Notes: generated by a model not told the origin, from the sequence alone. A stretch of 64,000 nt of DNA from a bacterium (GCA_030427365.1 JAUHWW010000001.1:31963-95962); one strand, 5' to 3'. Shown: positions 14,082-45,014, counted from the stretch's first letter. Numbers and translations are program-made.

Positions 14082-14109
14082 ATAAAAATTATAGCAGGTG
14101 CCCGAAGGG

Positions 14110-15492: not shown

Positions 15493-15602
15493 GAAGCTAA
15501 CCTAAAAGCGGATTCCTGTCCCGTACGCAGACTTGTCTTGCTACGGGATAAATCCGCTTTTGCTTTCTTTGAGAAAAGTTCGAAACAGTTTACACTTGAG
15601 AC

Positions 15603-18912: not shown

Positions 18913-18948
18913 TATACAAGAATTAGTTACCGTGTAAAGTGATCATGG

Positions 18949-19374: not shown

Positions 19375-19413
19375 AAGCGTCTCTTTTCTCTGTTAATGCT
19401 ATCATACTCTTGT

Positions 19414-27060: not shown

Positions 27061-27789
27061 TTACGGAGTGTTTTGTGGGCTGTTCGTAAACTTAACTACC
27101 TCATCAAAAGTTACTCTACCTACGGAGTTTATGTTATAAATCACACCATCATTGAGACTGTCATCACTGTTTGTTTTAAGAATTTGTGACACGGCCTGGA
27201 TGTCTTGCTGGGTATAGCCGAGATAAAAAGTAACAACTAAGTCGTTGGAAGAGTTTAGATAACGTATAGAATACCGCTCTTCCTCTATAGGGAGTTGTCT
27301 TAAGACGGTACTTTTTTGGCCATTTAGCTGCAAGGCATCGTCTATGTTTGCCCCTGTCACCGTATTGGTAATCGACAAGATGGCAAACCCAAGTTCAGAA
27401 TACTGAACCTTGAGCTCAATCTCTTCTTCGAGACCGTAATAGAAACCTGTATGTACGTACATTTCACCATCGGTGGCAAACCCATCAGAAAAAGTAAACC
27501 CAATCAACTGCTGCTCATTAATAAAAGCACTGCTTGTCGTTTTTGCAAATAGTGCCAAATCCTCCTGTGCTAGCCGAAAAATTCGTTCATCCTGGTTTAT
27601 GTGCGGAAAAAACTCATCGGAATTATAAATAATTGCATAGTCGCGGCCTGCTCTTGGGTCGTCATACGGATTTTGTTTTGCAGGATTAACCGGACCACCC
27701 TCGCTAGTAAAATAGGCAACAGTTATCCCTAGTAATGCAAACACTATAACGATAACAAAGCTGAGTTTTCTAATAACCTGCATATTCAT
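27061..27789 (-). CDS. bitopic membrane protein of the T4SS-like block (VirB8-like topology, unassigned)
   Basis: N-terminal TM FVIVIVFALLGITVAYF + ~210-aa ectodomain; last gene of minus-strand block. Confidence 0.35.
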   Translation of the reverse strand: MNMQVIRKLSFVIVIVFALLGITVAYFTSEGGPVNPAKQNPYDDPRAGRDYAIIYNSDEFFPHINQDERIFRLAQEDLALFAKTTSSAFINEQQLIGFTFSDGFATDGEMYVHTGFYYGLEEEIELKVQYSELGFAILSITNTVTGANIDDALQLNGQKSTVLRQLPIEEERYSIRYLNSSNDLVVTFYLGYTQQDIQAVSQILKTNSDDSLNDGVIYNINSVGRVTFDEVVKFTNSPQNTP

Positions 27790-27801: not shown

Positions 27802-29787
27802 CTAATTTCCGTCTATTGACCAGTGCCATGCTTCATACCCCTCAGAATCACGATCTTGCCCCCGACCAAACTCATACAAACCGTAACTTGATGCATTAGA
27901 AACAAGCCAGTTAAAACACTCATTGTCTAGGGCCTCACTATAAGCTCTCGGTAACAACACTTCATTACACTCAATATCTAAGGCTAAGCCCAGCTGATGA
28001 TTTGAATACCCAGGAGGGGCACCTCCAGGACAGCTTTGATAATCCTCAAGCGGTTTAGGATACGGTCCCGGGGTTGGCGTGTAACCTCCTGAGCTACAGT
28101 GAGATTCATAGATTGCTACTTGCCCGTCCATCGTTCTAAAGCCACCACCCCCTCCACCGGTAAAGGTTATGTTCGCCCCAGCAGCTCTCGCGTCGTCGAT
28201 TAACGATTTTACCGCAGCTGAAATCTGCGAATTAACAACTGCGCCCTCATATTCACAGGTGCGGATACGGTACTCTTCACCGTTTCTGAAGCCGAGAGCA
28301 TTCTCGTCGACAGTTCTTGTGCCTGTAGCACAAAGAATCGCAGTTGTATCTCTTGACTCGGTGTCGACCGTAGTGCCTGCTGCACAGCTCGCTCCCGTGT
28401 AGCTGCCTCCAGTTCCAGTATATTCGTTAAATATTCGATTTGCTCTCTCTCGACGATTATTAATCTCATTTTGTCGGCTGGCCCCTCCATCAATAACAGA
28501 TCTTGGCCTTTCGAATTCAAGAAGAAAGCTGTCAGAAGCCTCATTTATGGTAACGGATGGGTTCTCCATAACCGCAAGAACGCCAGTGAACAGTTCACTC
28601 AATTCCTTGAACAAAAAGTCTAGCTGTAGATCCATGCTTCCTGTTGAGCGTCCCGTTTCTGTGGCGTAAGCAATAAGCGCGTCCTGTCTTGTCTCAAAAG
28701 TCCACTGAGCAAGCCCATAACCATAACTGCCTCGAAATATCGGACCCTTGCTTCCTGTAGCTGCTGTAAAGTCAATTGGTATCTCAGGACTTCTGTTGTC
28801 TGGATAACCAGCCGAAAATTCAACCACTTGCGGATCCATTGTGCCAGCAGATTCGACTTCCAAGTTACCCATGATTCCTGCAGCCGCTTGTTCTGATAAT
28901 CCGATGCCAGCAGCCTCGTCTGTTAGGTAATTCCAGGCATTTTGATACCGCTCTTCTTTTGTTGTAGCGCTTTCCACGATAGGACTATTGACGTTACAGC
29001 TACAGCCGGCAAGGCCCGCCGGACCCGAAAACTCCTCTTCTGGGTCTGTAAGTTGTGTAATTATGTATCGTGTCATCGCTGGGTAATTTTCGGGGTGCAG
29101 ACCATCACCCGATAGATTAGATGCAGCGACACTACTGGAGCCCCACGGAATAATAGATACGTTAGTTTGGCTGCTCGCGACATTTTCAATGCCCTGGTTG
29201 ATAACAGGCCCCGCTATGGTCAAGTTGTTGCCCGCACTCGAACCACGAATGTATGTTGTTATCCATCGAATTTCAATAGCTGGGTTTATAGTGGTTGCAG
29301 CCGTAACGAGTGATGAAGCTAGTTCGGTAATTAGCTCCTCGCCTCCTTCGACCACTTCAGATCCATTGACGACATCAGCAACATTATTTGTTCCCAGACC
29401 AACAACAAGCACGTCACTATTAGACACCTCGGTCTGACGCGCGTTTATTTGCTCAACTCCCCAACTAATACTTCGTCCAATTTCTGCAACAACTCCACTA
29501 ACTTGCCAGCCAGCTTCTTCAACGGCTCCGCTAAGGTCGCCCAGATCTCTCATGCCGACTGTTAGCGAATCCCCCAGAAAGAATAGTTGAGAGCCTGCGG
29601 CGATTTCATCGACGGTAGTTGCTAGGGTTGGAGCAGTGCAGTATATGGTTTCTTCAATATCAAAATACGATGATCCGCTGTCAATAACCCTGCGCTGCTC
29701 AGGATCAAGTGCGTGTACCGAAGGTACGGTAATGGTAAGAACAAAAAACAGTGAAAGAGCGAGGCAAGAAATAATGCGCAATCTCAT
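27802..29787 (-). CDS. secreted tri-domain cell-wall hydrolase: SGNH/GDSL esterase + lysozyme-like (GN..ES...GLAQW) + M15/VanY-type D-Ala-D-Ala peptidase
   Basis: Signal peptide; FFLGDSLTVG, VVGLGTNNV, GDGLHPE (SGNH blocks I/III/V); GIMGNLEVESAG...GYGLAQWT; C-terminal SNHQLGLALDIEC (SxHxxGxAxD zinc-peptidase motif). Confidence 0.6.
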   Translation of the reverse strand: MRLRIISCLALSLFFVLTITVPSVHALDPEQRRVIDSGSSYFDIEETIYCTAPTLATTVDEIAAGSQLFFLGDSLTVGMRDLGDLSGAVEEAGWQVSGVVAEIGRSISWGVEQINARQTEVSNSDVLVVGLGTNNVADVVNGSEVVEGGEELITELASSLVTAATTINPAIEIRWITTYIRGSSAGNNLTIAGPVINQGIENVASSQTNVSIIPWGSSSVAASNLSGDGLHPENYPAMTRYIITQLTDPEEEFSGPAGLAGCSCNVNSPIVESATTKEERYQNAWNYLTDEAAGIGLSEQAAAGIMGNLEVESAGTMDPQVVEFSAGYPDNRSPEIPIDFTAATGSKGPIFRGSYGYGLAQWTFETRQDALIAYATETGRSTGSMDLQLDFLFKELSELFTGVLAVMENPSVTINEASDSFLLEFERPRSVIDGGASRQNEINNRRERANRIFNEYTGTGGSYTGASCAAGTTVDTESRDTTAILCATGTRTVDENALGFRNGEEYRIRTCEYEGAVVNSQISAAVKSLIDDARAAGANITFTGGGGGGFRTMDGQVAIYESHCSSGGYTPTPGPYPKPLEDYQSCPGGAPPGYSNHQLGLALDIECNEVLLPRAYSEALDNECFNWLVSNASSYGLYEFGRGQDRDSEGYEAWHWSIDGN

Positions 29788-30351
29788 CTACTGACTGCCT
29801 TCTGTGATGTAGTTAATAACGGATCGTGGGTAATTTAACTCCGACAGATACTCTTCGTCATAACCAGTTCCCGACTCGCGCAGCTTCCATCCCTGTGAGA
29901 TGGTATATTCGTGAATAGTAAGATAGCCTTCAACCGTTCCGTCACTGCCAATATAGCTAACAAGCCAACCATCATCTTCCAATAGCTCAGCATCTAGTAT
30001 GGTAAAGCGGTTATCTTCTAGGTTGATAAGCACGCTGCTCAGCTCAATCGCTGAAAGCTGTCTTGAGTCCAAGACAACGCTTTTCGAGGAAAAGGGCTGT
30101 AATGATACTGTTTCAGAAACAGGACTCGTTCGCTTCCCACTAGCCCCTATAGAGTATGTACCGGGTCTTAAGCGAAAAGTAGGGTCTGAATTTATTTCTA
30201 TTGTCGGGTAGGTTTTCTCCCCGATTGTTATAGTTTCAAAATCGCTACTATTCTCCAAGGATACAGTTCCAAACCAAAATAATTGATAGAATAAAGTTGC
30301 TATTCCTGCTGTCAACAGGACTGAAATAATCACAAGGACTCTTCTGTTCAT
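29788..30351 (-). CDS. bitopic membrane hypothetical protein (T4SS-like block)
   Basis: N-terminal TM VLVIISVLLTAGIATLFYQLFWF; translationally coupled at both ends. Confidence 0.35.
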   Translation of the reverse strand: MNRRVLVIISVLLTAGIATLFYQLFWFGTVSLENSSDFETITIGEKTYPTIEINSDPTFRLRPGTYSIGASGKRTSPVSETVSLQPFSSKSVVLDSRQLSAIELSSVLINLEDNRFTILDAELLEDDGWLVSYIGSDGTVEGYLTIHEYTISQGWKLRESGTGYDEEYLSELNYPRSVINYITEGSQ

Positions 30352-33300
30352 GGTGACGACCCCGGACCGATATATCGCACTGCATAGGGGTAGTAGCTTG
30401 CATCCCTCGTGTAATAGCCAGTACGTCTTTCTCCCTCGTCGTTTCTGCTGGCTGATGATTCCATCGTTAAGAATTCACCGCTCGGTAGACGCTCGGCCAG
30501 AATCCCTATGTGGCCGTTGTTTCCACATGTGCGGCTTTTTATCAAGAAGTCTCCTGTCCTTGCTTCCCCAGGACTTATTTGTGTAAAATAATCTGTTCTG
30601 TCGAGATATCCTGCTGAGCAGGTTGGTCCTATTTCCACACCGAATGCTTCGTAGATGGCAACGTTTGTAAAGCCACTGCACTCCATGAAGTCGTTGGAGC
30701 CATTCACTACGCGTTCCTCTATCCACTCTCGTGGTCTTTGCCCCAGGCTCCCTTCAATTGTACTAACCCCCCATTCTTCCAGCCACCGGCTGCCTGTACC
30801 AACGTTGTAGTTAGCGTATCTCACTCCGAAATAGTTTTGCGCAGCACAGGTAATTCGTTCGTTGCCTGTAATATTTGAACACTCACCTGTGCTCGTGTTT
30901 TCCTCTGCGACTACTGATCCTATTGGCTCATTGTTAAAGCCTAGGAGTGCACACGACTCCTCAGAGCTAACTACAGTCGCCTCATCTCCAGCGTTATCGG
31001 GTAGGTAGCAGTTGAGACTGTGGCTTGTAAGAGTGTCATTTATGTAGAAGCGGTAGTCTAGGTAATCTGCATTGTCCCTAAAGCCATCACATTCCTCTGG
31101 TTGATTGAACGGCGAGCTTGCCATCTGGTCACTTTGCACGATTGGATCGAGAGTGTCTACGTCAATTCGTGTCGGAAAACATTGGCCATATCTGCTTTCG
31201 AGATCGGCGATATTTGCCTCAACTCTGCTTGCCACCGCGTAAGGATCCTGCACCTGTTCAGCGTCTTGTTCGCTAGCCGAAAAGCCTATTTCGCTGAAGC
31301 CATAATCAAACGGCTCTGAAGCCTCCGCTGCACCTGCCTTAGCGCTAGAGAACAGGCTAAATGGATTCGATATCGCAGCAAACATATTTGAGTGCAGAGA
31401 ACTGACAGACGATATTACTGACGTAGGCACAGAGCGCAAAGTTATCGCAGCTAGTGAGTCTGTCGAATCAAGATCAAATACGCGTGCAAAGAACGATTGC
31501 TTACTCCTCAAATCCTCTTTTAATTGTTGATTTCTGGCATCAAGTATTCCCACTTCTTGATTAGTCAACTCTTCTCCCCCCATGCCGAAGCCGAGCATTC
31601 CAGCAGCCAGTCGTGCCCCGTAGTTGGCAACGTTTCCGAGTGCTGGCCCTACCACATCAGTAACTACTCCATCGCCTGCCAGCCATGAGGCGACGCTGAG
31701 AGCAATATCTTGGGGTGTTGGCAGGCCAAGCCCAGTAAGCACTCCGCTTAGTGCAGCATCAGACAACTGCCCGACCTGAGCTATGACTGGGAGCCCGGAA
31801 ATCCAGCTGCTCACACCGCAGGCAGTGCCGAGACCTGGTATGTTGTCTATTGCTACAAAAAGCTTTGGTTTACCTTTAATACTATCTGGCTTCACTGATG
31901 GATCAATATCTGGCCCAGTAATCGGTTTGCCCATTTCATGCTGGATACTCGCCGCCGCATATACACTTCCTGTTTCGGGGTCATTCAGTTCTTTTACAAA
32001 AAAACCGATTTCATCTAGAGATAAGTCAGAGGTTGGCGAGGAGAAAGCGAGTATCTGTGCTCCTTTTGACATCCAACGGAAACCGGTCCGAAGCATTGGA
32101 AGGATCGTGTTTTGAAATTGAATTTCCTCAGCCTGGTTGCCGACGTCACGAACAGCGCATAGCACCCCAACGACGGCGGCAGGACCCGAGGCTTTGCTAA
32201 TAATGCTTCTACCAATACCCCTCAACCTGCTTAGGCGGCTTCCCTCACCTTCTAGTGCAGCTGCTGCCTCTCGTGACGCTTCATTTCCAAAGTCTGCAGC
32301 ATCAATGTTTTCTGGAGGAGTATCAGGAACTCCATCTCCATTTAAGTCTTGATCGGCTTCCCCGGTCAGCGTACGCGCCCTTACGTCACTCACACCATTT
32401 CTTATGTCTGCGTTTCTGGTCGTCCGCACTCGATTATAGTATGAGAGTAGCGTCTCCCCAGGGCGCCGCACAGTTTTAAACGGATGAAAATCGACACCTC
32501 CGAGCCGCTTTAGAATACGTGATGCCACTATTTGCGACCTTTTTTTGAGTCCGCTGTTCTCTAGTATTTGATCGACGCCAAGACGGCGATTGCGGTCAGA
32601 GCCTCCGATGACAACAATACGTTTTTCGGTAGGACTTCCGTCAATTCTTGTGACTGAACTTGGGGGGTCTCCTGATGAGTCGATATTTTTGAGAAAGTCT
32701 CTAGCCTTATTCTCATCTAAAACTTCTAGTCCGACGAACCTTCCCCTGTCGCCTGGATCAAATACTGGTCTCACGCCTACCTGGTCTATGAGCTTTGTTT
32801 CATAGCTGTTGGCAACACGATTGCCGACCGCGCCCAAACGAGTCTGTTGGATATTTCCACTTTTTGCGTAACGATAGAGAATTCTTGAACTTCTATCGTC
32901 GCCGAAGGCCTGGATGTTCGTAAAGTGAAATTGCTCAAGTAATTGAGCAAACTGGACAATCTGAAATGGTCCAGAAACAGTGAGAAAAACAAGAAATGAC
33001 GCGACAACTCCACCACCAATGCCGCCACCTATTAACACTCTTCGACGCGTAATGCGCTTTCGAAGTCGCTTAAACCCACTCTCTTCTTCTACTTCACCAG
33101 AATTATTGTAAAGACTATCGACTTCTTTTTTATCGACACCACTAGTGTCCTGTCCATCCGATTCAGTTGGTTGGTTTTCCTTTTTCGCCGTGTCATTGGC
33201 TTGCTCAGTAGGATCGGTATTGGCGCGTTCTTTTGCTTCATCGGCGTTTGACGCGTCTTTCGCGTCTTCATCAAGCGTTGGGTCGCCGTTCTCATCAATA

Positions 33301-33632
33301 TTTCCTTCTGCGAGCCGGTCGCTGGCCTCTGGCGGCGCAAAGGCTTGATTAGTGCCTCGGCTCTCAGGAAGTGCTGGCCCGTAATCATCGATGCCAACAC
33401 CACCTTCAAGGTTTTGACTAGGGGCATCATTCTTGTTTATGGACGCTCGGTCAACATCTGGTTTTTGAGATGTCTTCGTTCGCTGTCCACCACCCTTAAA
33501 CGTTGGGCTGGTTGCATAAGGATTTTTACCGCCAACCGTATGGCGACCTTTGCTGCTAATGCGTCGCCGGCCAGTTACTTTGACCTTTGCTTTTCGTCTG
33601 TTATCTCCTGGTGCGGGAGCGGTGGTTGCCAT
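30348..33632 (-). CDS. large bitopic membrane protein with basic N-terminal cytoplasmic tail and C-terminal CHAP/NlpC-P60-like peptidoglycan amidase/peptidase domain (VirB1/PrgK-like role)
   Basis: 1094 aa; Lys/Arg-rich N-terminus, single TM LIGGGIGGGVVASFLVFLTV, C-terminal ECSGFTNVAIYEAFG ... NNGHIGILAE (Cys/His pair). Confidence 0.6.
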   Translation of the reverse strand: MATTAPAPGDNRRKAKVKVTGRRRISSKGRHTVGGKNPYATSPTFKGGGQRTKTSQKPDVDRASINKNDAPSQNLEGGVGIDDYGPALPESRGTNQAFAPPEASDRLAEGNIDENGDPTLDEDAKDASNADEAKERANTDPTEQANDTAKKENQPTESDGQDTSGVDKKEVDSLYNNSGEVEEESGFKRLRKRITRRRVLIGGGIGGGVVASFLVFLTVSGPFQIVQFAQLLEQFHFTNIQAFGDDRSSRILYRYAKSGNIQQTRLGAVGNRVANSYETKLIDQVGVRPVFDPGDRGRFVGLEVLDENKARDFLKNIDSSGDPPSSVTRIDGSPTEKRIVVIGGSDRNRRLGVDQILENSGLKKRSQIVASRILKRLGGVDFHPFKTVRRPGETLLSYYNRVRTTRNADIRNGVSDVRARTLTGEADQDLNGDGVPDTPPENIDAADFGNEASREAAAALEGEGSRLSRLRGIGRSIISKASGPAAVVGVLCAVRDVGNQAEEIQFQNTILPMLRTGFRWMSKGAQILAFSSPTSDLSLDEIGFFVKELNDPETGSVYAAASIQHEMGKPITGPDIDPSVKPDSIKGKPKLFVAIDNIPGLGTACGVSSWISGLPVIAQVGQLSDAALSGVLTGLGLPTPQDIALSVASWLAGDGVVTDVVGPALGNVANYGARLAAGMLGFGMGGEELTNQEVGILDARNQQLKEDLRSKQSFFARVFDLDSTDSLAAITLRSVPTSVISSVSSLHSNMFAAISNPFSLFSSAKAGAAEASEPFDYGFSEIGFSASEQDAEQVQDPYAVASRVEANIADLESRYGQCFPTRIDVDTLDPIVQSDQMASSPFNQPEECDGFRDNADYLDYRFYINDTLTSHSLNCYLPDNAGDEATVVSSEESCALLGFNNEPIGSVVAEENTSTGECSNITGNERITCAAQNYFGVRYANYNVGTGSRWLEEWGVSTIEGSLGQRPREWIEERVVNGSNDFMECSGFTNVAIYEAFGVEIGPTCSAGYLDRTDYFTQISPGEARTGDFLIKSRTCGNNGHIGILAERLPSGEFLTMESSASRNDEGERRTGYYTRDASYYPYAVRYIGPGSSP

Positions 33633-33675: not shown

Positions 33676-35592
33676 CTACCGTAAATTAACTGATTCATTA
33701 TACCCCGTTTGGTCAAGGTTGACCTGTTGCTGTTGCCGCTGTTCTTCTATCTGCCTGACCTCATCAGGATTAGTAGTGATGAGTGAGGTTTCGGTTGGTG
33801 ATGCGGTAATCTGAATATGAACATGGTTTTCACCGGCAAAGAACAATCCCTGTCCGACTGGAAATTGGCTGAGACGTTTCTTTTCTTCACTGGTGAGCTT
33901 GAAGGTGTTGGCGAGCACGTCGACAGCTGAAGCGGATTGTTTCAGCAATATCTGCATACTAGCGTTGGCGACAATAGCACGCCCCATCTTGCTATCCATG
34001 AAGTCTTCAACGTCTTGCGTCACAGTAGTGATGCCGAGGTTGTACTTTCTGGCTCGCTTCGCCAAAGAGAAGAGGAAGTTTGCGGAATCTTCATATTTCA
34101 TGAGCTGCCATGCCTCATCAACAACCAGCATGCGCTTTTTACGATCAGTCTTTGTCTTGTTCCAAATGTAATTCAGGACAATGTACATTGCGACTGGACG
34201 TAGTTCATCCTCGAGGTCGCGGACATTGAACACTACCATCGGATTATCAATGTTGATGTTGCTTTGCTGAGAGAAAATGCCCGCAAATGTGCCGGTGGTA
34301 TATTTACGCAAGCGCTGCGCGAGCTCTGGGCCAGTTCCACCCATATGTAGCAGCGTGTCGTAGAGGTCATTAATGGTCGGCGCCGGCGTGTTGTGGGTCA
34401 GTGGGTCGTTGGTAATGCCAGCTTTTGCGTAGGTTTCGATCAGCGCAGCATCGAGGTCGGACTCTTCGACTGGGCTGAGCGCTGGCATCATGACTTGCCC
34501 GCCCTGGCTGGCCATTTGCGCCTGCGCACCGCCCATCATCAATCGCAGCAGTCCGTGCAAGGTAATAAGGTTGCTGCGCAGTGCGTCATCGGCTTCGGCG
34601 TCATCGGTGACTTTTGGCAGATCAAACGGATTAATACGCGTTGAGCTGTTAAGACTGAGGCGCACGTAGGCGCCACCGACGGCGTCTGCAAGGCGCTCGT
34701 ACTCGTTCTCAGGATCGATAATAAACACTTCGGTGCCGAACATCATACTGCGCAGCGCTTCGAGCTTGACGGTGAAGCTCTTACCAGCACCAGACTTTGC
34801 AAAGACAACACTGTTGCCATTCTCGAGACTGAAGCGATCAAAGATAACCAGCCCTGAGTTGTGCATGTTAACCCCATAGAGGACGCCGTCGTCTTGAGTG
34901 AGGTCGGCAGAGGTAAATGGGAAGCTGGTTGATATGGCGCCGGTATTCATGTTGCGGCGAACCTGCAACTGGTCGGTGAACTGCGGTAGCGTGGAGTTGA
35001 GCCCCTGCTCTTGCTGAGCACTGGCTGGCTTGCTGTATACGAGCTGCTGGGCTAAGACACTTTCTACTTTGTGGCTGACAAACTCCATTTCTTCAACGTC
35101 ATTTGCATAAACGGTAAAGTAGAAGCCGAATCGGAAGAAGCGCTCTTCTCCCACTTGCAATTTGTCGCGCAATTCCTCGGCGTCGTTGATGGCGGCTTGT
35201 TTTCCTGGATCGCGAGCACGGCCTTTTTCAGCATCAATCTGCAGGCCTGCTTCAAGCTGTCCGACCTTTTTCTTGAGGTTTTCCAGCACTACCTGACTCT
35301 CAACTGGGTAGACGAACAGGGATAAATCAATGACTTCATCGAGATTAATCATGCTTGATAACCAGCCGGTGTAGATTTGCCGCGGATACCCAAAGACGTA
35401 GTAGGTGCGACCAATTCGCGTGCCAATCTTGAACTGACTGCTTTCGAATTCGAGGGACGCCGGCGCGATAAAGTCACGCAGCGCGGTAATACCCTTTTGG
35501 AAGGCTGCCTGCACTTCAGCTTGTTCTTGCGCAGATTGCACTTGCGCCTGCGCGACAGGATCGGGCATCTTTTTACCGCCAAATAAGCCCAT
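33676..35592 (-). CDS. VirB4/TrbE-family type IV secretion ATPase
   Basis: Walker A VFAKSGAGKSFT, Walker B MLVVDEAWQL, 638 aa as in monoderm VirB4 (PrgJ/TcpF/Orf16-like). Confidence 0.8.
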   Translation of the reverse strand: MGLFGGKKMPDPVAQAQVQSAQEQAEVQAAFQKGITALRDFIAPASLEFESSQFKIGTRIGRTYYVFGYPRQIYTGWLSSMINLDEVIDLSLFVYPVESQVVLENLKKKVGQLEAGLQIDAEKGRARDPGKQAAINDAEELRDKLQVGEERFFRFGFYFTVYANDVEEMEFVSHKVESVLAQQLVYSKPASAQQEQGLNSTLPQFTDQLQVRRNMNTGAISTSFPFTSADLTQDDGVLYGVNMHNSGLVIFDRFSLENGNSVVFAKSGAGKSFTVKLEALRSMMFGTEVFIIDPENEYERLADAVGGAYVRLSLNSSTRINPFDLPKVTDDAEADDALRSNLITLHGLLRLMMGGAQAQMASQGGQVMMPALSPVEESDLDAALIETYAKAGITNDPLTHNTPAPTINDLYDTLLHMGGTGPELAQRLRKYTTGTFAGIFSQQSNINIDNPMVVFNVRDLEDELRPVAMYIVLNYIWNKTKTDRKKRMLVVDEAWQLMKYEDSANFLFSLAKRARKYNLGITTVTQDVEDFMDSKMGRAIVANASMQILLKQSASAVDVLANTFKLTSEEKKRLSQFPVGQGLFFAGENHVHIQITASPTETSLITTNPDEVRQIEEQRQQQQVNLDQTGYNESVNLR

Positions 35593-37525: not shown

Positions 37526-39301
37526 TTAGCTACTTTTCTCTTTATGTAACCGAAGCAGTTCATCGACAGCATCATCGTATTTTTGAATTCTTTTTTCGTG
37601 GTCAACATCAGAAAATTTTTTCGGATCCCTCATGAGCTCACGCCGAATCTCTATTTCTCGAGGATTAATAGGACGTGGAATACTATAGTCTCGTGTAAAG
37701 CGAACTATAGAATCCCGCAAGGCCTGCGCTTCTTTTTCTTCGCCGCTTTGTATGATGTCGTCGGTTATTCCCTCAGCACGTTTTTTCAGATATCTAATGT
37801 AGGCGGTTTCATGTGTCATTTGGTTGGCAGCGCGCGCGTGCATGTCCATGTTTGTTTCGTCTTGGATCAGGACGGTTTTTCCAGTGTCGTCTTTACTTAC
37901 CTTAAGTCCTTCAGGAACTCCCCCGCTTTCCAAGAGCGACACTTCTATCGCTGCGTCAACTATTAAATGACCAGCAAATCTACCTGCCTCGTATAGCTGT
38001 CTCCGCAAACTTAAGGCATGTTCGAAATCCAAAGACCCTTCGACCTCAACCGTTCCTCTTGGTAGGTGTAATTCAGTCACGTCATCTCTATAGCTGATTA
38101 AGCGAACACCTGAGCCGTCTGTGAGTGATTTATTATTCGGGTTCCAGGTGAGTGTTGCTTCATCACCAAACTTATGGAGTACACCCCAGGCATCAACGTA
38201 TTTATCGCCAATTGTTTGATCGGAAAGAGGCTCATACTTAAAAGTGTGTTTCTCAACAGGTAATTGTGGTTCGACATATGGCGCTGGTTCAACTTTAGGC
38301 AGTGCATCATAATCTTCCTGCGTGTTACGTTTTACAGCTGTAATGATTTGAGCAGCTAGCTCAGGCGCCCTTCTAAAAGCTTGCTCTACGAAGTATTTCG
38401 CATTTTCTTGCAGGTGGTGTGCGGCTTCTTTTCTTGCTTCCTGGCGATTTTTTATTTTTTCTGCCTTATCGTCTGGAAGCTGCATACCAGGGTGAAAAGG
38501 ATCAATAGCCGTCTCAGTTTGCTTAAAGTGAGCTGCATCTCTTCGCGTTTTCGCAAGATGTCGGCCCATTTTCGTGGCATGTTGAACATCTGCATCGAGG
38601 TATGGCACAACCTGCACCAATTTGCGAATAGCGAGTGGGAGTGCTCTAGGACCAGTTTTTGTTGGATCTGATTCTTCGTAAGGCACAGAGGTACCCTTAC
38701 CTGCTGCGAGGCGCTCAGAGATGAAATGATCGGTTGCGACGGCTCTAAGCGCTTCAAGAAGTCCAGTATCTCCAGTGCTTAGTTCGGTTTTTATGCCTTT
38801 TTCAGCCTTGTGTGCTCTCTCGTTGGCACTTGTAATTCTTTTGAACACGGCTGCGATATCTTCCGTGCTTATATCTGCGGGCAGCATAGTTCTCTGTCCT
38901 TGCGAGCTACTGGATGGCGGCAAGTAACTGCCAATCGCCCATCTTACATACTCAGCCGCTACATACTCGTCCGGGACGCGGTTTAGGTCTTCAGAATAGT
39001 ATTCTCTTAGATCTGGTGAGGTAAAGCAGAGATCTTGCGTTGGCTTGCCTAAATCAACGGGCGCATAAGCAGAGGTGTTTACTAAGCTGTCAGAGTAGGG
39101 CGAAAGAGGACTTGTATGGTTCCACGATTTTCGGGTCGTGCTGCGAAATCCTCCGTCACCAGGCCCTACGGGCTGTCGATCATCAACAATCTCTACAAAG
39201 TTAACATCTAGGCTATCAGGTTTAGGGTGCTGGGGCTCTAAAGCGGGAGCGTGTTCGCCGGACATAGTATAAATATTACCAGAAATAGGCAATAAAGTCA
39301 A
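37526..39301 (-). CDS. hypothetical soluble protein (591 aa) in T4SS-like block
   Basis: No TM/signal, no recognisable catalytic motif by eye. Confidence 0.4.
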   Translation of the reverse strand: MTLLPISGNIYTMSGEHAPALEPQHPKPDSLDVNFVEIVDDRQPVGPGDGGFRSTTRKSWNHTSPLSPYSDSLVNTSAYAPVDLGKPTQDLCFTSPDLREYYSEDLNRVPDEYVAAEYVRWAIGSYLPPSSSSQGQRTMLPADISTEDIAAVFKRITSANERAHKAEKGIKTELSTGDTGLLEALRAVATDHFISERLAAGKGTSVPYEESDPTKTGPRALPLAIRKLVQVVPYLDADVQHATKMGRHLAKTRRDAAHFKQTETAIDPFHPGMQLPDDKAEKIKNRQEARKEAAHHLQENAKYFVEQAFRRAPELAAQIITAVKRNTQEDYDALPKVEPAPYVEPQLPVEKHTFKYEPLSDQTIGDKYVDAWGVLHKFGDEATLTWNPNNKSLTDGSGVRLISYRDDVTELHLPRGTVEVEGSLDFEHALSLRRQLYEAGRFAGHLIVDAAIEVSLLESGGVPEGLKVSKDDTGKTVLIQDETNMDMHARAANQMTHETAYIRYLKKRAEGITDDIIQSGEEKEAQALRDSIVRFTRDYSIPRPINPREIEIRRELMRDPKKFSDVDHEKRIQKYDDAVDELLRLHKEKSS

Positions 39302-39325
39302 TACGCTTATGCTGGTAATAATCTC

Positions 39326-40171
39326 TTAGGCCTCTTGGTCGTCAGCGCCAGCCCGGCTCTCTTGCTGTCGTCGCATCATCTCGAGCTCTTCCTGTGTCAT
39401 ACCCGCTTCGCGGCTAACCGATCTCGCACCTTCTATAATTGCTCTTAGCTCAGGAGGTACATCCGCTTCATTCATGCGCTCCCTAACAATCTTAGTAACT
39501 GGCTGTCCATTTTCGACGACAGTAACTGTTCGCTCTACCATTGGCCAGCTTGCACCCGCTTCTATGAGATCTGATAGAGTATTTGCATCCTTGCCATCAA
39601 TAGTAAATTTGAAGTTCTCGTCTTTCGTTTTTGGTCTTGGGAGATCAAAGCCATTCGCAACAATCCTTTGAACTTCGCCGTTTGCTGTCGCATTAACATT
39701 TTGCCGCATGCTTTTCATCTGACCAATGCGTTGTCCCATAAGTCGCAAATCAGCTTCTCTTTTTTCGCCAGCAGTTTGAGTGACCCTTCCTTCCTCATCA
39801 ACGCTATCAGTGTATTTGTTTTGTGAGAGGCGAGTTTCAATTTCCTGTACGTCTGCACCTAGCATAGATACAAGATTTTTTGCATCCGTCGGATGGATGT
39901 TGTTCCAGTCGTAGGTACCCATGGCATCAAGCGTCTTTTGCTTCATGCGCAGGTTAATATCTTCTTTGGTCATGCCGGCTTTAATTGTATGTGTTTCACC
40001 AGTAATTTCATCTTGGTAAGTAATATCTTGTGTCGTCGCATCGCCACCACTGGCATTTATCATACGGTTTGCCTGTGCGAGAGCGAGACCCTCACCAAAT
40101 GAGATACGAGATAGCATATATCGCCTGGTTGTAGGCTTCGGCGTAGAGCACTGTATTTCCATGAGTACCAA
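39326..40171 (-). CDS. hypothetical soluble protein (T4SS-like block); start may be downstream ATG (~40063) to avoid 80-nt overlap
   Basis: ORF track; hydrophilic; overlaps 3' end of VirB6-like gene. Confidence 0.35.
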   Translation of the reverse strand: MVLMEIQCSTPKPTTRRYMLSRISFGEGLALAQANRMINASGGDATTQDITYQDEITGETHTIKAGMTKEDINLRMKQKTLDAMGTYDWNNIHPTDAKNLVSMLGADVQEIETRLSQNKYTDSVDEEGRVTQTAGEKREADLRLMGQRIGQMKSMRQNVNATANGEVQRIVANGFDLPRPKTKDENFKFTIDGKDANTLSDLIEAGASWPMVERTVTVVENGQPVTKIVRERMNEADVPPELRAIIEGARSVSREAGMTQEELEMMRRQQESRAGADDQEA

Positions 40172-42122
40172 CCTCTATGTCATCCAGCATTTCTGTGGCG
40201 CCATTAATATGCGACGTTTTTGAGCCTGCTTTTGCGGCAGCCGCCATGCCTCCGAGCGAGTCACCATAGGTGTTGTAGAGTGTTCTCGCCTGGGCAATCT
40301 CACCCTCCGCGTCTAGTCCAACAATACCGTTTTTCTCAAGTTCAATTTTCGCCTCTAATTCGTTTCCTTCGGCCCTTGCGAGCGCCAAGTATGCTTGAAC
40401 AAAATTGTCGTTTGCAAATTTCGTCCCAACATTCTTGTCTTCTCCAGCATGCCTCTCGTGCTCTCTATGAAGTCGATCTGCAGCTGCCTTTCTGTTTCCA
40501 GCACTGAGCTTATCCTTCAGACTGTCATCTGTACCCAGAGACTCTTTTAGAGCGAGACCGCTTTTCGTTGCGCTGTTCAAGCGGCTTCCAAAGCGAGATT
40601 TTGCGGCCTTGCTACCCGGCCGTAATAGCCCTCTTTGCTGCACCCGTTCCCAGTCCTTCTTTCCCCTTTCCCGGCGGAACTTCTTTTGTCTATCAAAGAT
40701 ACCTTTACCACGATCATTGACCATGCCGGCGAGGTTGGCGAATGCGCCGCCAAGGTATTTGAATGCGGCTGGAATGGCAAAGAACGGACCAATGTAGGCA
40801 ATGAACTTTAGGAACAAGCTGAATACGCCCTCTAAGCCCTCAAGATCAGAAGTAAAGACGACAGCTGCGAAGCCCCTGCCTGCATAGAGAAGCAGGATAA
40901 TAAGTGGGAATATCATTAGTAACTTGCTGAATGTTGACCACCATAGTTTCCACAGCTTGTCATTGCCGGGGAAAATCCATGACACGATCGCGATCGGCGC
41001 CATAATAATAAGGAAGATTATCAGGAGCTCTCTCACTGAGAGAAGTGCAAAGATAATTATTACTGCCAGAGCCGACGTGAACAGAAAGCTCATGAGAATG
41101 CTGATCGATACAATGCCAACAGCAAGTGCAGCGACAATACCGACAAGACCAACACCCAGTGTTGCGGTTGTTGCAGCCCCTTCTCCTATAGAGAAGACAT
41201 CTGTAAATTCGAGTGCTCCTTTACCGCCAAATGGCGCCGCCACCAGCCCTCCAACGCCATTACCGACATTGTTGGTGAACTCAATTAAGAACACACATAT
41301 ATCAAACGAGAGTGCCATAAATATGACGGCAATGAAGAGTCGTGGCATTGCTCGCTTCACGGTGTAGGCGTCGACAAACTGGAAACCCAATGCAGTTGAT
41401 ATCACCATCACGAGCAAGACTGGTATGAGCAAAATATAGCTGATATTACGGAAGCTCGACCAGACAGCGCGCAATTCAGGGGTCGAGTAGTATTCTTCCT
41501 TTACTTCCAGCGCATCAATGATCTGCTGATCAACCTCTTCAATGACTTCGGCAGAGCCATAGATGATCGGACAGAGTAGCCATCCCCATCCATCCCCACT
41601 TTGTTCACAACTATCTTGCTCAACCACGTCGCCTTCTTCAGGAACATCTGAACTACCGACACCGTCGGGGTTATCGCTGAGCAAAGGACTAATGCTGCCA
41701 CAATCTACCGGAAGAGCTTGACCAGACAGATAGCAGAGACCATTCCCAACACCAACCTCTTGTTGAGGGTTACACTCAGCTTCATCGTAGAAGCCAGCTT
41801 GACTTCCGCTATCAAGTAGTTCGTAACAGCCGGGAGGAGCAGAACTCCCAACTCCGCCTGGGTTGTCGCTAAGCAGCGGCGTAATACTGTTACAGTCTAC
41901 CGGAAGAGCTTGACCAACCAGATAACAGTTTCCATTTCCAACTCCAGCTTGTTGAAGTGAATTACACTCACCTTCATCATAAAAGCCATTTTGAGGTCCA
42001 CCAGAGAGTAGTTCGTAACAGCCAGGATCGGCTGCAAAAGCAGTTTCTGTTGGGATCAGACTTAGTCCAAAAGCTCCAATCAGTACAAAAAATGCTGCGA
42101 AGAAGTAATGTAGAATTTTCAT
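40092..42122 (-). CDS. VirB6/TrbL-like polytopic T4SS channel protein with duplicated Cys-rich N-terminal ectodomain modules
   Basis: Signal peptide, two ~60-aa modules each with 4 Cys (PGCYELL...GFYDE.ECN...GVGNG.CYL.GQALPVDC), then ~8 TM helices, charged C-terminal tail. Confidence 0.6.
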   Translation of the reverse strand: MKILHYFFAAFFVLIGAFGLSLIPTETAFAADPGCYELLSGGPQNGFYDEGECNSLQQAGVGNGNCYLVGQALPVDCNSITPLLSDNPGGVGSSAPPGCYELLDSGSQAGFYDEAECNPQQEVGVGNGLCYLSGQALPVDCGSISPLLSDNPDGVGSSDVPEEGDVVEQDSCEQSGDGWGWLLCPIIYGSAEVIEEVDQQIIDALEVKEEYYSTPELRAVWSSFRNISYILLIPVLLVMVISTALGFQFVDAYTVKRAMPRLFIAVIFMALSFDICVFLIEFTNNVGNGVGGLVAAPFGGKGALEFTDVFSIGEGAATTATLGVGLVGIVAALAVGIVSISILMSFLFTSALAVIIIFALLSVRELLIIFLIIMAPIAIVSWIFPGNDKLWKLWWSTFSKLLMIFPLIILLLYAGRGFAAVVFTSDLEGLEGVFSLFLKFIAYIGPFFAIPAAFKYLGGAFANLAGMVNDRGKGIFDRQKKFRRERGKKDWERVQQRGLLRPGSKAAKSRFGSRLNSATKSGLALKESLGTDDSLKDKLSAGNRKAAADRLHREHERHAGEDKNVGTKFANDNFVQAYLALARAEGNELEAKIELEKNGIVGLDAEGEIAQARTLYNTYGDSLGGMAAAAKAGSKTSHINGATEMLDDIEVGTHGNTVLYAEAYNQAIYAISYLIW

Positions 42123-42227: not shown

Positions 42228-42629
42228 ATGAAAATACTAAAATCACTGCTTATTTTAACCCTTTTTCTAGCACCAGCTAGCCAGGCTGCGAACGCTTCTG
42301 CAAGCGCCACAGATTCAGATAATTTTCGTTTTTCCGCAGCGTTAAACTTCAGTGCTGAGTGCGATCCGCCGCCGAACCAAGACTTGACATCAGAAAATTG
42401 CGGCATCGTTGCGTACCTCGTACTTGCAATTAATGTCCTCTCAGCTGTTGCAGGAATAGCAATTGTTGCGTCGATTATGATAGCCGGATTTCAGTATATG
42501 ACGGCTCGGGATAATGCTGGACAAGTTGAGGCGGCACGTAAACGGATTGTCTGGGCGCTGTTAGCATTGCTGATATTCATATTCACCTATGCCTTTCTAA
42601 ACTTCGTTGTCCCGGGAGGCGTCTTGTGA
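42228..42629 (+). CDS. VirB2/TrbC-like pilin paralog 1
   Basis: Signal peptide, 2-Cys variable segment, two C-terminal hydrophobic helices separated by ARDNAGQVEAARKR loop. Confidence 0.5.
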   Translation: MKILKSLLILTLFLAPASQAANASASATDSDNFRFSAALNFSAECDPPPNQDLTSENCGIVAYLVLAINVLSAVAGIAIVASIMIAGFQYMTARDNAGQVEAARKRIVWALLALLIFIFTYAFLNFVVPGGVL

Positions 42630-43330
42630 TAATCCGTAGGCTACTCAGCTTTACAACGTTGGTTCTTTTTGCCGCAGTTTTACCCCTCAATAGTAGTTCA
42701 TTTGTGAGCGCTCAAACTGGTGAGGACATCTGTCCAAACCCCGGAACCTCAAGCTACGTAGCTTGTGTGCAGGAAGTGAATCAGAAGTTATCTGCATGTG
42801 ATGCGCTTGGAACAGGAACAACAACATGGCAGAGCTGTAGGGAAGAGATATTTGATGATTACGGTTTTTCTGCAGGAGACGGCCCGGAAGTGGATGAGGG
42901 GTTGCCGGCTGGCGCCGCTGTCACTGCAATAAGAGAGGATCCGTGCGGCGAGAATGAGTATGCAACAGATATTTTAGGCATTCCTGTCTGGTACAAGTAT
43001 CTTGATGTTAGGAAGGATGTTTATGAGTACGACAGTGGTGATGAAGTTGAAGGAAAGTGTACGCCTCGTCTAAGTGAGTCAGGCGGCGGTATTGACCCCA
43101 CCTCAGCGTTACCAATCGGGCTAGCGGTACTCGAGGCCATGATGGTCATAGCCGGCTTAGTCGCGGTCGTGATGATTTTCTGGGGCTCCTTCCTTTACCT
43201 GGTCAGCCAGGGTGAGTCAGACAAGGCTGCCGGGGCGCGTAAAACAGTTATCAACGCGGCGATTGGTTTGGTGATCGTGATAATCGCGACGCGTGTCGTA
43301 TCATTTATAGCAACGAGGCTAACAAGCTGA
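42626..43330 (+). CDS. VirB2/TrbC-like pilin paralog 2 (long 6-Cys N-terminal domain)
   Basis: Signal peptide; C-terminal ...MIFWGSFLYLVSQGESDKAAGARKTVINAAIGLVIVIIATRVVSFI; ATGA overlap with paralog 1. Confidence 0.5.
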   Translation: MIIRRLLSFTTLVLFAAVLPLNSSSFVSAQTGEDICPNPGTSSYVACVQEVNQKLSACDALGTGTTTWQSCREEIFDDYGFSAGDGPEVDEGLPAGAAVTAIREDPCGENEYATDILGIPVWYKYLDVRKDVYEYDSGDEVEGKCTPRLSESGGGIDPTSALPIGLAVLEAMMVIAGLVAVVMIFWGSFLYLVSQGESDKAAGARKTVINAAIGLVIVIIATRVVSFIATRLTS

Positions 43331-43629
43331 TGCTGCAAAAAATTACACAGTTCATCGCACAGATAAGTATCGACGAAGGCGATATTGACATTCCTACCAA
43401 CGTTGATCCGGATTCTGGTTCAATTGATACACTTTTGACTCTCATGTTTAGTGTCATGGGTGGGATTGCCCTGCTCGTGATCATCATCGCAGGTATGCAA
43501 TTTGTCCTTAGCCGTGGTGATGCAGAAAAAGCTGCTAAAGCTCGCCGCACTATTATCTATGCCGCTGTTGGGCTCGTGATTGCCGTTATGGCCTTTACCA
43601 TTGTTAGCTTTGTTGTAGGGAGTGTGTGA
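43330..43629 (+). CDS. VirB2/TrbC-like pilin paralog 3 (short, no obvious signal peptide)
   Basis: C-terminal IIIAGMQFVLSRGDAEKAAKARRTIIYAAVGLVIAVMAFTIVSFVV. Confidence 0.45.
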   Translation: MLQKITQFIAQISIDEGDIDIPTNVDPDSGSIDTLLTLMFSVMGGIALLVIIIAGMQFVLSRGDAEKAAKARRTIIYAAVGLVIAVMAFTIVSFVVGSV

Positions 43630-44048
43630 TGTTACGCCGAGCCCTACTCTCACTTCTTGTTTTAGCCTTCTTACCACTGGCTATGACCTCAAGTGTGTCG
43701 GCAGGTGGTTTTGACCCTCTAGGCCGTGCATGTACTACGACAAACGAAGACGGAGAGACAATAAGAATAGAATCGGCTGCATGTGAGGAGAGTGAAACTG
43801 GTCAAGGCTCAGATAACCCGGTCACAGGAGAGACAGGTATTGTGGAACGTGTTGCGAACATTCTCGCGATTGTTACGGCGATTATTGCCATCATTATTAT
43901 CGTCATCGCAGGTATGACGATGTCGCTTTCTGGGGGTGACTCTACAAAGGTGCAGAATTCACGCAACGCCATTATCTACGCCGCTGTTGGCCTAGTGGTT
44001 GTCGCGCTTGCACGAACTATAGTAGTATTTGTGGTAAATAGATTATGA
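43626..44048 (+). CDS. VirB2/TrbC-like pilin paralog 4
   Basis: Signal peptide; 2 Cys; IIVIAGMTMSLSGGDSTKVQNSRNAIIYAAVGLVVVALARTIVVFVV. Confidence 0.5.
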   Translation: MMLRRALLSLLVLAFLPLAMTSSVSAGGFDPLGRACTTTNEDGETIRIESAACEESETGQGSDNPVTGETGIVERVANILAIVTAIIAIIIIVIAGMTMSLSGGDSTKVQNSRNAIIYAAVGLVVVALARTIVVFVVNRL

Positions 44049-44500
44049 AAAAGATACTATCGTTTTTTGTTAGCCTTACCTTGCTCAGCGGTTTTTTCGC
44101 ATTCGTGTATGGGCCCCAGCCAGTCATGGCATCTGACGCAGCGAAAGACGCCATCTGTTCAGGCATCGTAGCGGCAGGTGAAGATTGCGGTACGGACGCT
44201 GATGCTGACAGCAGTTCGGTAAGCTCTACTATCGAGACGGTGATCAATATCCTTTCTGTTATCGGAGCCGTTATAGCGGTCATCATGATCATTATTGGTG
44301 GTATGAAGTTCATTACCTCACAGGGTGATGGCAATTCCACAGCTGGTGCGCGCAATACGATTATCTACGCTGTTGTCGGATTGGTCATCATTGCGCTCGC
44401 GCAAGTGATTGTGCAGTTCGTTGTAGGACGGGTTGGCAGTGATCCGCCAGCCTCTCAAAATGTTCCTCCTCCACTACCTCCAGACGGTGGCCCGAGTTAA
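44045..44500 (+). CDS. VirB2/TrbC-like pilin paralog 5 (Pro-rich C-terminal tail)
   Basis: Signal peptide; 2 Cys; IIIGGMKFITSQGDGNSTAGARNTIIYAVVGLVIIALAQVIVQFVV + PPASQNVPPPLPPDGGPS. Confidence 0.5.
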   Translation: MKKILSFFVSLTLLSGFFAFVYGPQPVMASDAAKDAICSGIVAAGEDCGTDADADSSSVSSTIETVINILSVIGAVIAVIMIIIGGMKFITSQGDGNSTAGARNTIIYAVVGLVIIALAQVIVQFVVGRVGSDPPASQNVPPPLPPDGGPS

Positions 44501-44570
44501 AAAGGATTGAGCTCCGATGGAGCTTGTGGTATAAAGTACATAAACAAAGTAATAAGGAATTAGACTAATC

Positions 44571-45014
44571 ATGACAAGACTAAAACGACTATTAGCAAGT
44601 TTTATGCTGACATTCAGCTTTGCAGTGCCAGCGCTCGTGCCGGCTGTAGCTGCGGCTCAAGGCACCAATAACACGGATCAATTATGTGCGGGGGCTAATC
44701 TTGAGTTCACGCTTGATCCAGAAGCAGGTGTCTGTGAAGGAGACGGGGAGGAAGGAAATGCGGGGGACACACTTACCGGTATTGTCACGACTATCATTAA
44801 TATCCTATCAGTGGTCGTTGGTATCGTGGCAGTCATCATGATTATCGTCGGTGGCTTCCAATACCTCACGTCACAAGGTGATTCAGGCAAGGTAACAAAT
44901 GCGAAGAACACGATCCTCTATGCAATTGTTGGTCTCGTAATAGTAGCGCTGGCTCAAATCATCGTCCAGTTCGTGACTGGTCGACTCGGAAACGCACCAG
45001 CATCCGATGGTTAA
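44571..45014 (+). CDS. VirB2/TrbC-like pilin paralog 6
   Basis: Signal peptide; 2 Cys; IIVGGFQYLTSQGDSGKVTNAKNTILYAIVGLVIVALAQIIVQFV; good RBS AAGGAA. Confidence 0.5.
   Translation: MTRLKRLLASFMLTFSFAVPALVPAVAAAQGTNNTDQLCAGANLEFTLDPEAGVCEGDGEEGNAGDTLTGIVTTIINILSVVVGIVAVIMIIVGGFQYLTSQGDSGKVTNAKNTILYAIVGLVIVALAQIIVQFVTGRLGNAPASDG

Follow-up and report, generated by a model that had tools for sequence, protein, structure and literature searches.

A candidate wall-breaching hydrolase with esterase, lysozyme and peptidase modules in the type IV secretion locus of a Saccharibacterium

Why should a gene cluster for a type IV secretion system (T4SS) code for a single protein that joins an esterase, a lysozyme and a peptidase? 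The question is raised by a 64,000-nucleotide stretch of bacterial DNA (GCA_030427365.1 JAUHWW010000001.1:31963-95962), here called the window, whose first letter is position 1. An open reading frame (ORF) of 661 amino acids (aa), starting with ATG and spanning 27802..29787 on the minus strand, lies there among genes for T4SS components. A first-pass annotation, made from the sequence alone, described its product as a secreted hydrolase comprising an SGNH esterase, a lysozyme-like domain and an M15 D-Ala-D-Ala peptidase. The present analysis combines domain searches, alignments, an AlphaFold2 model and the comparison of related loci. It reveals three modules that are catalytically intact as judged by their residues, a predicted export signal and a conserved, operon-like linkage to a T4SS of the type that is essential in a relative. 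The protein is thus probably the wall-breaching enzyme, analogous to VirB1, of the chromosomal monoderm-type T4SS of a Saccharibacterium, a tiny episymbiotic bacterium.

Modular composition of the hydrolase

The N-terminus of the protein, MRLRIISCLALSLFFVLTITVPSVHA followed by LD, displays the n-, h- and c-regions of a Sec-type signal peptide when read by eye (aa 1-26, 29710..29787, minus strand), with cleavage predicted after VHA. The homologues in a 15-sequence alignment have equally hydrophobic N-termini, and their h-regions finish in A-x-A-like sites. Export via Sec is thus predicted, in agreement with the earlier description of the protein as secreted. The AlphaFold2 model (mean predicted local distance difference test score, pLDDT, 72; predicted template-modelling score, pTM, 0.38) contains three folded modules and disordered linkers at aa 17-58, 251-274 and 459-472, thereby depicting a beads-on-a-string enzyme whose modules are carried on flexible linkers. 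The characteristic motifs, among them all those named in the first-pass annotation, are found at aa 72-78 (GDSLTVG), 132-135 (GTNN), 228-233 (DGLHPE), 307-313 (GNLEVES), 356-362 (GYGLAQW), 595-604 (SNHQLGLALD) and 651-656 (YEAWHW). The residues S74, N134, H231, E312, H597, D604, E652 and H655 are invariant in the family alignments (E312 in the 12-sequence set).

The first module is an SGNH/GDSL hydrolase (aa 62-248, 29044..29604, minus strand), with block I at S74, block II at G110, block III at N134 and block V at D228/H231. Lipase_GDSL_2 (PF13472) matches aa 70-232 with E=1.6e-4 and 22.7 bits, a sub-threshold score, and the assignment therefore needed independent support. All 13 SGNH segments of the family match PF13472 at E<=0.01 (best E=1.7e-13), relatives in two loci exceed its cut-off (L032, 40.0 bits; L028, 40.6 bits), and precomputed PF13472 matches are present on homologues. 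The segment aa 61-247 is modelled at pLDDT ~90, and a Foldseek search of the PDB returns GDSL esterases with probability 1.00, E from 4.6e-7 and target-normalised TM of 0.66-0.69. Nearly all of the top 50 matches are GDSL/SGNH enzymes, as expected of the three-layer alpha/beta/alpha SGNH fold. Furthermore, G72, D73, S74, G110, G132, N134 and H231 are invariant in the 15-sequence alignment; D228 is kept in most members, P0008 and P0017 having Asn at H-3 and Glu or Asp at H-2. The family-level matches, the fold and the invariant residues together support the SGNH/GDSL assignment, which the first-pass annotation had drawn from blocks I, III and V. Generic GDSL esterases (8ik1, 7e16) and a sialate O-acetylesterase are the nearest solved relatives of the module, and the SGNH-fold peptidoglycan O-acetyltransferases PatB (8tlb, 8gr2) and OatA-C (6vjp, 6wn9) are also near.

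Between the first and second modules lies a disordered linker (aa 249-275, 28963..29043, minus strand) that carries a near-invariant G-C-S-C motif (C262, C264). The motif is kept even in relatives with other C-terminal domains, and many family members have a lipobox-like L-A-G in front of it. Another conserved cysteine, C50, stands alone in the linker ahead of the SGNH module. The linker cysteines may serve in disulfide stapling or mark a processing site.

The central module is a lysozyme of the phi29 gp13 type (aa 276-458, 28414..28962, minus strand), which includes E312 and the GYGLAQW motif. Phage_lysozyme2 (PF18013) covers aa 281-455 at E=3e-24, with 86.2 bits against a cut-off of 28.2 and a span of model positions 3-139 of 140. 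A profile of 12 family members finds a sole significant match in the PDB, phi29 gp13 (3csr/3csq, E=5e-13), along with a weak match to a phage Gp16. A CwlT/Tn916-like lysozyme was assumed at first and then rejected, since the hydrolases of that type (4hpe, 4fdy) are not matched by this profile; the module is thus of the gp13 rather than the CwlT type. The initial comparison with lysozymes of phage tails and integrative conjugative elements (ICEs) is therefore borne out for the phage tails, but not for ICE enzymes of the CwlT/Tn916 type. E312 is invariant in the 12-sequence lysozyme alignment and conserved to at least 90% among the 15 aligned sequences. It lines up in the profile alignment with Glu45, the proposed catalytic residue of gp13 (PMC10394673). 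Both the fold and the catalytic residue of a gp13-type lysozyme are therefore present, and the module would be expected to cleave glycan strands.

The C-terminal module (aa 474-661, 27805..28368, minus strand) is composed of a beta-rich subdomain (aa 474-517) and an M15B zinc peptidase domain resembling LdcB and VanY (aa 518-657). The latter is matched by VanY (PF02557; aa 518-657) at E=1.5e-14, with 54.4 bits against a cut-off of 25. H597, D604, E652 and H655, as well as the FR..Q motif (550-556), are invariant among nine sequences and align to the LdcB/VanY motifs; by analogy with these enzymes, H597, D604 and H655 are presumably the zinc ligands and E652 the catalytic residue. The M15B profile matches the LdcB/DacB LD-carboxypeptidases in the PDB (4d0y, 4ox5, 4mph) at E ~1e-10, VanY (5hnm) at 1.6e-8 and also VanXY, and the L-Ala-D-Glu endolysin peptidases 2vo9 and 6akv marginally, at E ~0.1. 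The zinc-peptidase signature SxHxxGxAxD, first recognised in SNHQLGLALD, is borne out by these results, as is the M15 affiliation. The scores are nevertheless far below the NCBIfam cut-offs for LdcB (NF041194, 26.9 versus 275) and VanY (NF000473, 23.7 versus 400), so that D-Ala-D-Ala peptidase activity, as originally named, is one possible specificity, and membership in M15B is proposed at the level of the domain. The module shares the SxHxxGxAxD, ExxH and FR..Q motifs with LdcB and VanY (4ox5, 4d0y, 4mph, 5hnm), yet these are free recycling enzymes, whereas in the window the domain is fused to lytic modules. It also has extra features, namely a Pro-rich insertion of ~25 residues, six family-invariant cysteines and the N-terminal beta subdomain.

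The secretion locus and its enzyme cassette

The hydrolase gene is the ninth of ten co-directional minus-strand genes, separated by gaps of -4 to 43 bp, except that the two ORFs farthest upstream are listed with an overlap of ~80 bp. The order on this strand is orf676, orf281, orf591, PrgI, TrsD-like, VirB4-like, orf1094, orf187, hydrolase and orf242, and recF, dnaN and dnaA adjoin the cluster on the side opposite the pilin array. The VirB4-like T4SS ATPase (33676..35592, minus strand) belongs to the CD1110 family, as recognised by NF045971 with 364 bits against a cut-off of 325, and family scans identify a TrsD-like protein (35592-36389, minus strand) and a PrgI/VirB3-like protein (PF12666; 36423-37487, minus strand). 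Six VirB2-like T4SS pilin genes form an array on the plus strand (42228..45014), divergent from the T4SS operon. The five that were scanned all match T4SS_pilin, four of them above the Pfam cut-off and the one at 42228-42629 below it; the sixth (43330-43629, 99 aa) is pilin-like by eye only. The T4SS-like block of the first-pass annotation is thus confirmed. The hydrolase is flanked by two small genes: orf187 (29788..30351, minus strand), which separates orf1094 from the hydrolase gene and codes for a membrane or exported protein, and orf242 (27061..27789, minus strand), coding for an exported protein 3' of the hydrolase that is conserved in several loci. Two related loci (L032, L034) have an ORF of 189 or 196 aa at the position of orf187.

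Related loci were collected in two ways. A pattern scan with SGNH block I, using one genome per species, produced 31 loci (L001-L031), nearly all from Saccharibacteria or Saccharimonadales metagenome-assembled genomes, and by tblastn most of them preserve the order orf676, PrgI, TrsD, VirB4, orf1094, hydrolase, recF, dnaN and dnaA. This set is biased to SGNH by its retrieval and is unusable for frequencies, for which reason 80 metagenome loci were fetched through VirB4 instead; 32 of these have a complete VirB4-to-recF interval and serve for the unbiased counts. The same gene order is found in these 32 loci, bringing the total to ~60. Conservation on this scale identifies the cluster as a core chromosomal T4SS of Saccharibacteria, located beside the replication-initiation genes dnaA-dnaN. 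A mobile-element (ICE) origin was considered and rejected, since dnaA-dnaN-recF adjoin the cluster in nearly all loci and the guanine-plus-cytosine (GC) content is not distinct (0.46-0.52 across the T4SS block, like the remaining window).

The large neighbour orf1094 (30348..33632, minus strand) codes for a membrane-anchored protein of the T4SS block which appears to contribute a further wall-active module. Pfam is blank on this protein, even when its C-terminal 178 aa are searched alone at E<=10. A profile of eight homologues of the C-terminus, however, matches NlpC/P60 enzymes in the PDB with E from 3.6e-4, including 7cfl, the Tn916-like hydrolases 9ubf and 4hpe, Spr/MepS and CwlO, and all 13 of the best matches (to E=0.2) are NlpC/P60-type wall hydrolases. 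C985 and the C-terminal H1041 are invariant among the homologues. The region aa 917-1094 (30351..30884, minus strand) is therefore a predicted NlpC/P60-type Cys-peptidase domain, the putative fourth wall-active module of the cassette. This domain sits on a different gene in three other loci (L028, L051, L027).

A comparison with Candidatus (Ca.) Southlakia epibionticum relates the locus to a system of known importance. Transposon sequencing (Tn-seq) has shown its T4SS cluster, SEML1_0006-0019, to be essential when the species grows as an epibiont on Actinomyces (Wang et al. 2023, PMC10633639). The system resembles those of Gram-positive conjugation, but has pilins and is devoid of recognisable coupling or relaxase proteins (PMC10633639). 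Family scans of the cluster proteins in the window likewise detected no coupling or relaxase gene. The divergent pilin array of the window has its counterpart in the pilin array that is reported as essential in Ca. Southlakia epibionticum. SEML1_0006 (643 aa, essential) combines a PF01832 glucosaminidase, a PF18013 lysozyme and an ECOD “cysteine proteinase”, and the likewise essential SEML1_0007 (1113 aa) terminates in a Hedgehog/DD-peptidase domain (PMC10633639, Tables S1/S2); the pair is also noted in PMC12102498.

The window hydrolase is the positional orthologue of SEML1_0006, and orf1094 that of SEML1_0007: both loci present virB4, a protein of ~1100 aa, a hydrolase of ~650 aa, small exported proteins and recF-dnaN-dnaA. 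The two hydrolases have the same three-module layout, yet share only the central PF18013 lysozyme. The N-terminal module is SGNH in the window and a glucosaminidase in SEML1_0006, and the C-terminal module is M15B in the former and a Cys proteinase in the latter. The large neighbours are swapped the other way, with NlpC/P60 on orf1094 and the M15-like Hedgehog/DD-peptidase on SEML1_0007. Overall, both systems can be said to cover glycan cleavage with one or more modules, to add peptidases of the Cys and M15 types, and to spread the set over two proteins.

Such exchange is widespread. Already in the SGNH-selected loci, the SGNH, lysozyme and VanY modules are combined in many ways and can lie on either of the two genes. 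Across the 32 unbiased loci, whose VirB4 is 78-86% identical to that of the window, hidden Markov models (HMMs) built from the family detect SGNH in 4, the family lysozyme in 14 and VanY in 6, and the fusion of SGNH, lysozyme and M15B in none. These models are narrow, 13 of the 32 loci being without a match, and Pfam found other hydrolase families there. Among the 51 proteins of the 32 intervals, Pfam identifies Phage_lysozyme2 (14), M23 (8), Glucosaminidase, CHAP, GDSL_2 and NlpC/P60 (4 each), Amidase_3, C39_2 and SLT types (3 each) and DUF2272 (2), together with a beta-lactamase-like domain and an alpha/beta-hydrolase of the DUF676/PGAP1/LCAT type. The C-termini of the large proteins carry VanY (7), M23 (2), Exo_endo_phos with its nuclease/phosphatase fold (2) and CHAP (1). 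A spot check of ten recF-adjacent proteins of ~500 aa from other loci returned no hydrolase families.

Even the closest relatives illustrate the same trend. L029 (cassette at 6309-12331), with VirB4 89% and DnaA 75% identical, codes for an M14 C-terminus and for a protein that joins SGNH, a NagZ-like GH3 domain and lysozyme. L028 has an SGNH C-terminus and a glucosaminidase protein that also bears an NlpC/P60 domain, and L032 combines NlpC/P60 with SGNH plus lysozyme. L001 and L002 share the architecture of the window hydrolase, the latter also having an NlpC/P60 C-terminus. The SGNH module is directly N-terminal to the lysozyme in three of the four unbiased cases, in the biased set and in many database representatives. 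A search of 1.84 billion representative proteins produced 3577 matches at E<=1e-3, and among the best of these that were listed ~14 clusters cover all three modules. The exact SGNH, lysozyme and M15B fusion is thus rare, and the two-gene enzyme cassette is combinatorial: the machine is kept, while modules are exchanged even between close relatives.

A protein identical to the 661-aa hydrolase, flanked by the same genes, occurs in at least three unrelated sequencing runs (SRR15216810, ERR3428543 and SRR24075715; loci L112, L113 and L114), which indicates that the organism recurs in different samples. In one of these three assemblies, the large protein upstream is annotated with 1026 instead of 1094 aa.

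Role of the hydrolase and rival explanations

The role favoured here is that of a VirB1-like opener of the wall. After export by Sec, the hydrolase would probably be kept near the T4SS channel. The SGNH module may remove an ester substituent, most likely O-acetyl on N-acetylmuramic acid (MurNAc) or on another wall glycan, that would otherwise block glycan cleavage; the gp13-type lysozyme would then cut the glycan strands via E312, and the M15B peptidase, whose zinc-ligand set is present, could cut or trim the stem peptides. The NlpC/P60 endopeptidase on the adjacent orf1094 C-terminus would add a fourth activity. Jointly, the modules may make a local opening for the secretion system and pilus in the peptidoglycan of the epibiont itself and, plausibly, in that of an attached host of the Actinobacteria type.

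Known systems provide parallels to such a role. The hydrolases of monoderm conjugative systems (PrgK, TraG and the CwlT/Tn916 type) are likewise encoded inside a T4SS operon of the VirB4/PrgI type, and have an N-terminal membrane or export signal, a glycan cleaver and one or more peptidase modules. PrgK of pCF10 consists of LytM, SLT and CHAP, TraG of pIP501 of SLT and CHAP, and the CwlT/Tn916 type of lysozyme and NlpC/P60. None of the three has an esterase or an M15B module, both of which are present in the window hydrolase, and its gp13-type glycan cleaver is neither an SLT domain nor a CwlT lysozyme; 4hpe and 4fdy are matched only via their NlpC/P60 halves, by orf1094 and not by the hydrolase. 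The window system also differs from the conjugative ones: it is chromosomal and bears a pilus, its counterpart in a relative is essential, and it is apparently not conjugative. The proposed job of the conjugative enzymes is the local opening of the thick wall for assembly of the channel (PMC12102498). Homologues of the VirB1/TrsG/CD419 profiles are mostly unlinked to virB4 in Patescibacteria, and other glycosidases have been suggested as substitutes (PMC12102498). The window hydrolase has the attributes of a VirB1 analogue, with glycan-cleaving and peptidase modules and a predicted export signal.

Phage tails offer a second parallel. Phi29 gp13 (3csq/3csr), the closest solved relative of the lysozyme module, also unites two activities, lysozyme and M23 peptidase, through a flexible linker, and penetrates the Gram-positive wall from outside; it differs in being a virion component, in having M23 instead of M15B and in the absence of an esterase. 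A structural search of BFVD leads to phages that infect Gram-positive bacteria and Actinobacteria, with matches dominated by their tail-associated esterases and lysins and the top match spanning two modules. The Tal protein of Staphylococcus aureus phi11, Gp44, joins an endopeptidase to an SGNH domain and, like the window protein, connects an SGNH esterase with a device for wall penetration. In phi11 Tal and the actinophage “esterase” or “minor tail” proteins, however, the fusion partners and their order are different, and the SGNH activities of such phage proteins are uncharacterised (PMC4876445).

Several observations weigh against the role proposed above. The SGNH score of 22.7 bits is below the Pfam gathering cut-off of 32.9, and the isolated domain reaches 24.9 bits. 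The solved SGNH relatives include the O-acetyltransferases PatB and OatA-C in addition to generic lipases and esterases, and Ape1 is absent from both the PDB profile search (E up to 10) and the Foldseek top 50. No O-acetyltransferase of the OatA or PatA/B type was found among 20 further ORFs of the window, a scan of 64 kb that is uninformative for the whole genome. The M15B module is nearest to carboxypeptidases, which trim stems instead of opening cross-links. With a pTM of 0.38, the model is uninformative on the mutual arrangement of the modules. Finally, essentiality is known only for the positional orthologue SEML1_0006, in which the N- and C-terminal modules are different.

The alternative that survives best concerns the SGNH substrate, and it is possible, albeit the less probable view, that O-acetylated peptidoglycan is not what this module acts on. 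Other candidate activities are those of a lipase or lysophospholipase for host lipids, of a deacetylase of other glycans on the host surface (capsule, teichoic acids or arabinogalactan-type polymers) and of a peptidoglycan O-acetyltransferase. Homologues are annotated as “lysophospholipase L1-like esterase”, and the solved relatives described above, without Ape1 and with likeness to transferases and generic esterases, make lipids or other acetylated glycans conceivable substrates. The DUF676/PGAP1/LCAT-type hydrolase in the cassette of one unbiased locus and another large GDSL protein, encoded among polysaccharide genes of the window, point in the same direction. Saccharibacteria cannot make fatty acids, and their SGNH/thioesterase-like genes have been read as lipid-related (PMC6031116). 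On the other hand, the SGNH module is mostly fused directly upstream of the lysozyme, which favours an accessory role in glycan cleavage, and all the other modules of the cassette are directed at peptidoglycan. Neisseria Ape1 provides the logic for such a role, whereby de-O-acetylation permits glycan cleavage; the window module has the same SGNH catalytic architecture, without an accessory domain of the Ape1 type. Peptidoglycan de-O-acetylation, as proposed in the first-pass annotation, is a reasonable reading of the SGNH module.

A further question is whose wall would be opened. A conserved machine with a fast-recombining cassette fits action on the host wall as well as on the bacterium's own, and so does the dominance of tail esterases and lysins among the viral structural matches. 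The essential episymbiont T4SS and the rapid turnover of modules render a role at the host wall more plausible. A less probable extension of this idea is that the two genes 3' of virB4 constitute a rapidly recombining, phage-tail-like host-envelope toolkit that sets the host range. The SGNH module would then adapt the epibiont to O-acetylated, lysozyme-resistant host walls, and M15B would trim the stems so that the host could not re-crosslink the breach.

More radically, the hydrolase could be a host-directed lytic or nutrient-scavenging enzyme that releases muropeptides and sugars, or weakens or kills the host, rather than serving T4SS assembly. The modules turn over much faster than the T4SS core, as would be expected for matching diverse host walls, the structural parallels to tail lysins and esterases of Actinobacteria and Gram-positive phages are strong, and Saccharibacteria are without many biosynthetic pathways (PMC10633639). 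Yet the position of the gene immediately downstream of virB4, with near-zero gaps, is conserved across all the loci examined, and this conservation speaks for a functional tie to the T4SS. Hydrolases with several domains are part of monoderm conjugative T4SSs, where they serve the assembly of the channel (PMC12102498), and a freely diffusing triple hydrolase would endanger the wall of its producer as well. A mainly host-directed function of this kind is unlikely.

It is improbable that the protein is a housekeeping autolysin, used when the epibiont grows, divides or buds and located beside the T4SS by chance. LdcB-like carboxypeptidases, NlpC/P60 enzymes and lysozymes do serve normal wall turnover too, but the linkage to virB4 is kept across ~60 loci while the gene content is freely exchanged, a pattern unexpected for an autolysin acting on a conserved self wall, and the lysozyme is of the type found in phage tail devices. 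Translocation by the T4SS as an antibacterial effector similar to the X-Tfe proteins of Xanthomonas, with immunity conferred by orf187 or orf242, would account for a multi-domain peptidoglycan-degrading protein in a T4SS cluster, flanked by two small exported proteins whose positional equivalents are essential in S. epibionticum, but is more improbable still, given the N-terminal Sec signal peptide, the end of the protein at the last strand of the peptidase domain (leaving, by domain layout, no room for a C-terminal XVIPCD) and the published lack of a recognisable coupling protein or relaxase in the Saccharibacteria T4SS (PMC10633639), neither of which was detected in the window cluster.

Neighbouring genes and implications

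Upstream in the T4SS cluster are three genes without family matches, orf591, orf281 and the multi-transmembrane orf676 (37526..42122, minus strand), the last of which is conserved in related loci. The N-terminal ~170 aa of orf676 (40092-42122, minus strand), ahead of its multi-transmembrane region, contain two tandem Cys-rich repeats of ~66 aa, with the pattern PGCYELL..GFYDE.ECN...GVGNG.CYL.GQALPVDC.SI.PLLSDNP.GVGSS, which has no family match. A sortase gene at 50377-50994 (plus strand) is consistent with a monoderm envelope and wall-anchored surface proteins.

The second GDSL/SGNH protein of the window (943 aa, 16081-18912, minus strand) matches Lipase_GDSL_2 above the cut-off, with 40.8 bits, and has a weak match to the thrombospondin type-3 repeat. 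At least two large SGNH proteins that look exported are thus encoded within 12 kb in this organism. The 943-aa protein is encoded within a surface-glycan biosynthesis cluster (4715-20526) with three GT4 glycosyltransferases, two FkbM methyltransferases, a Wzm/Wzt ABC exporter, a GDP-mannose 4,6-dehydratase and an O-antigen-ligase-like protein; GC is lower at the left end (0.38-0.43). A 668-aa protein (2658-4664, plus strand) with an immunoglobulin-like domain and a C-terminal bulb-lectin (B_lectin) match just under the cut-off is a possible adhesin.

The existence and importance of a T4SS-linked multi-domain wall hydrolase in Saccharibacteria were already known. The present work adds esterase and M15B modules in such a T4SS-linked role, the rarity of the three-in-one fusion and the combinatorial nature of the cassette, in which the esterase is a recurring option and the window protein a rare version that unites all three modules. 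Saccharibacteria and other Patescibacteria, which live attached to bacterial hosts, account for much of the bacterial diversity that is uncultured, and the Saccharibacteria T4SS is the first reported to be essential for the survival of its bearer. A shuffled cassette on a conserved machine provides a testable handle on how one or two Gram-positive walls are crossed. The modules are also candidate enzybiotic parts against modified, lysozyme-resistant peptidoglycan, and the content of the cassette may bear on the determinants of host range in these epibionts.

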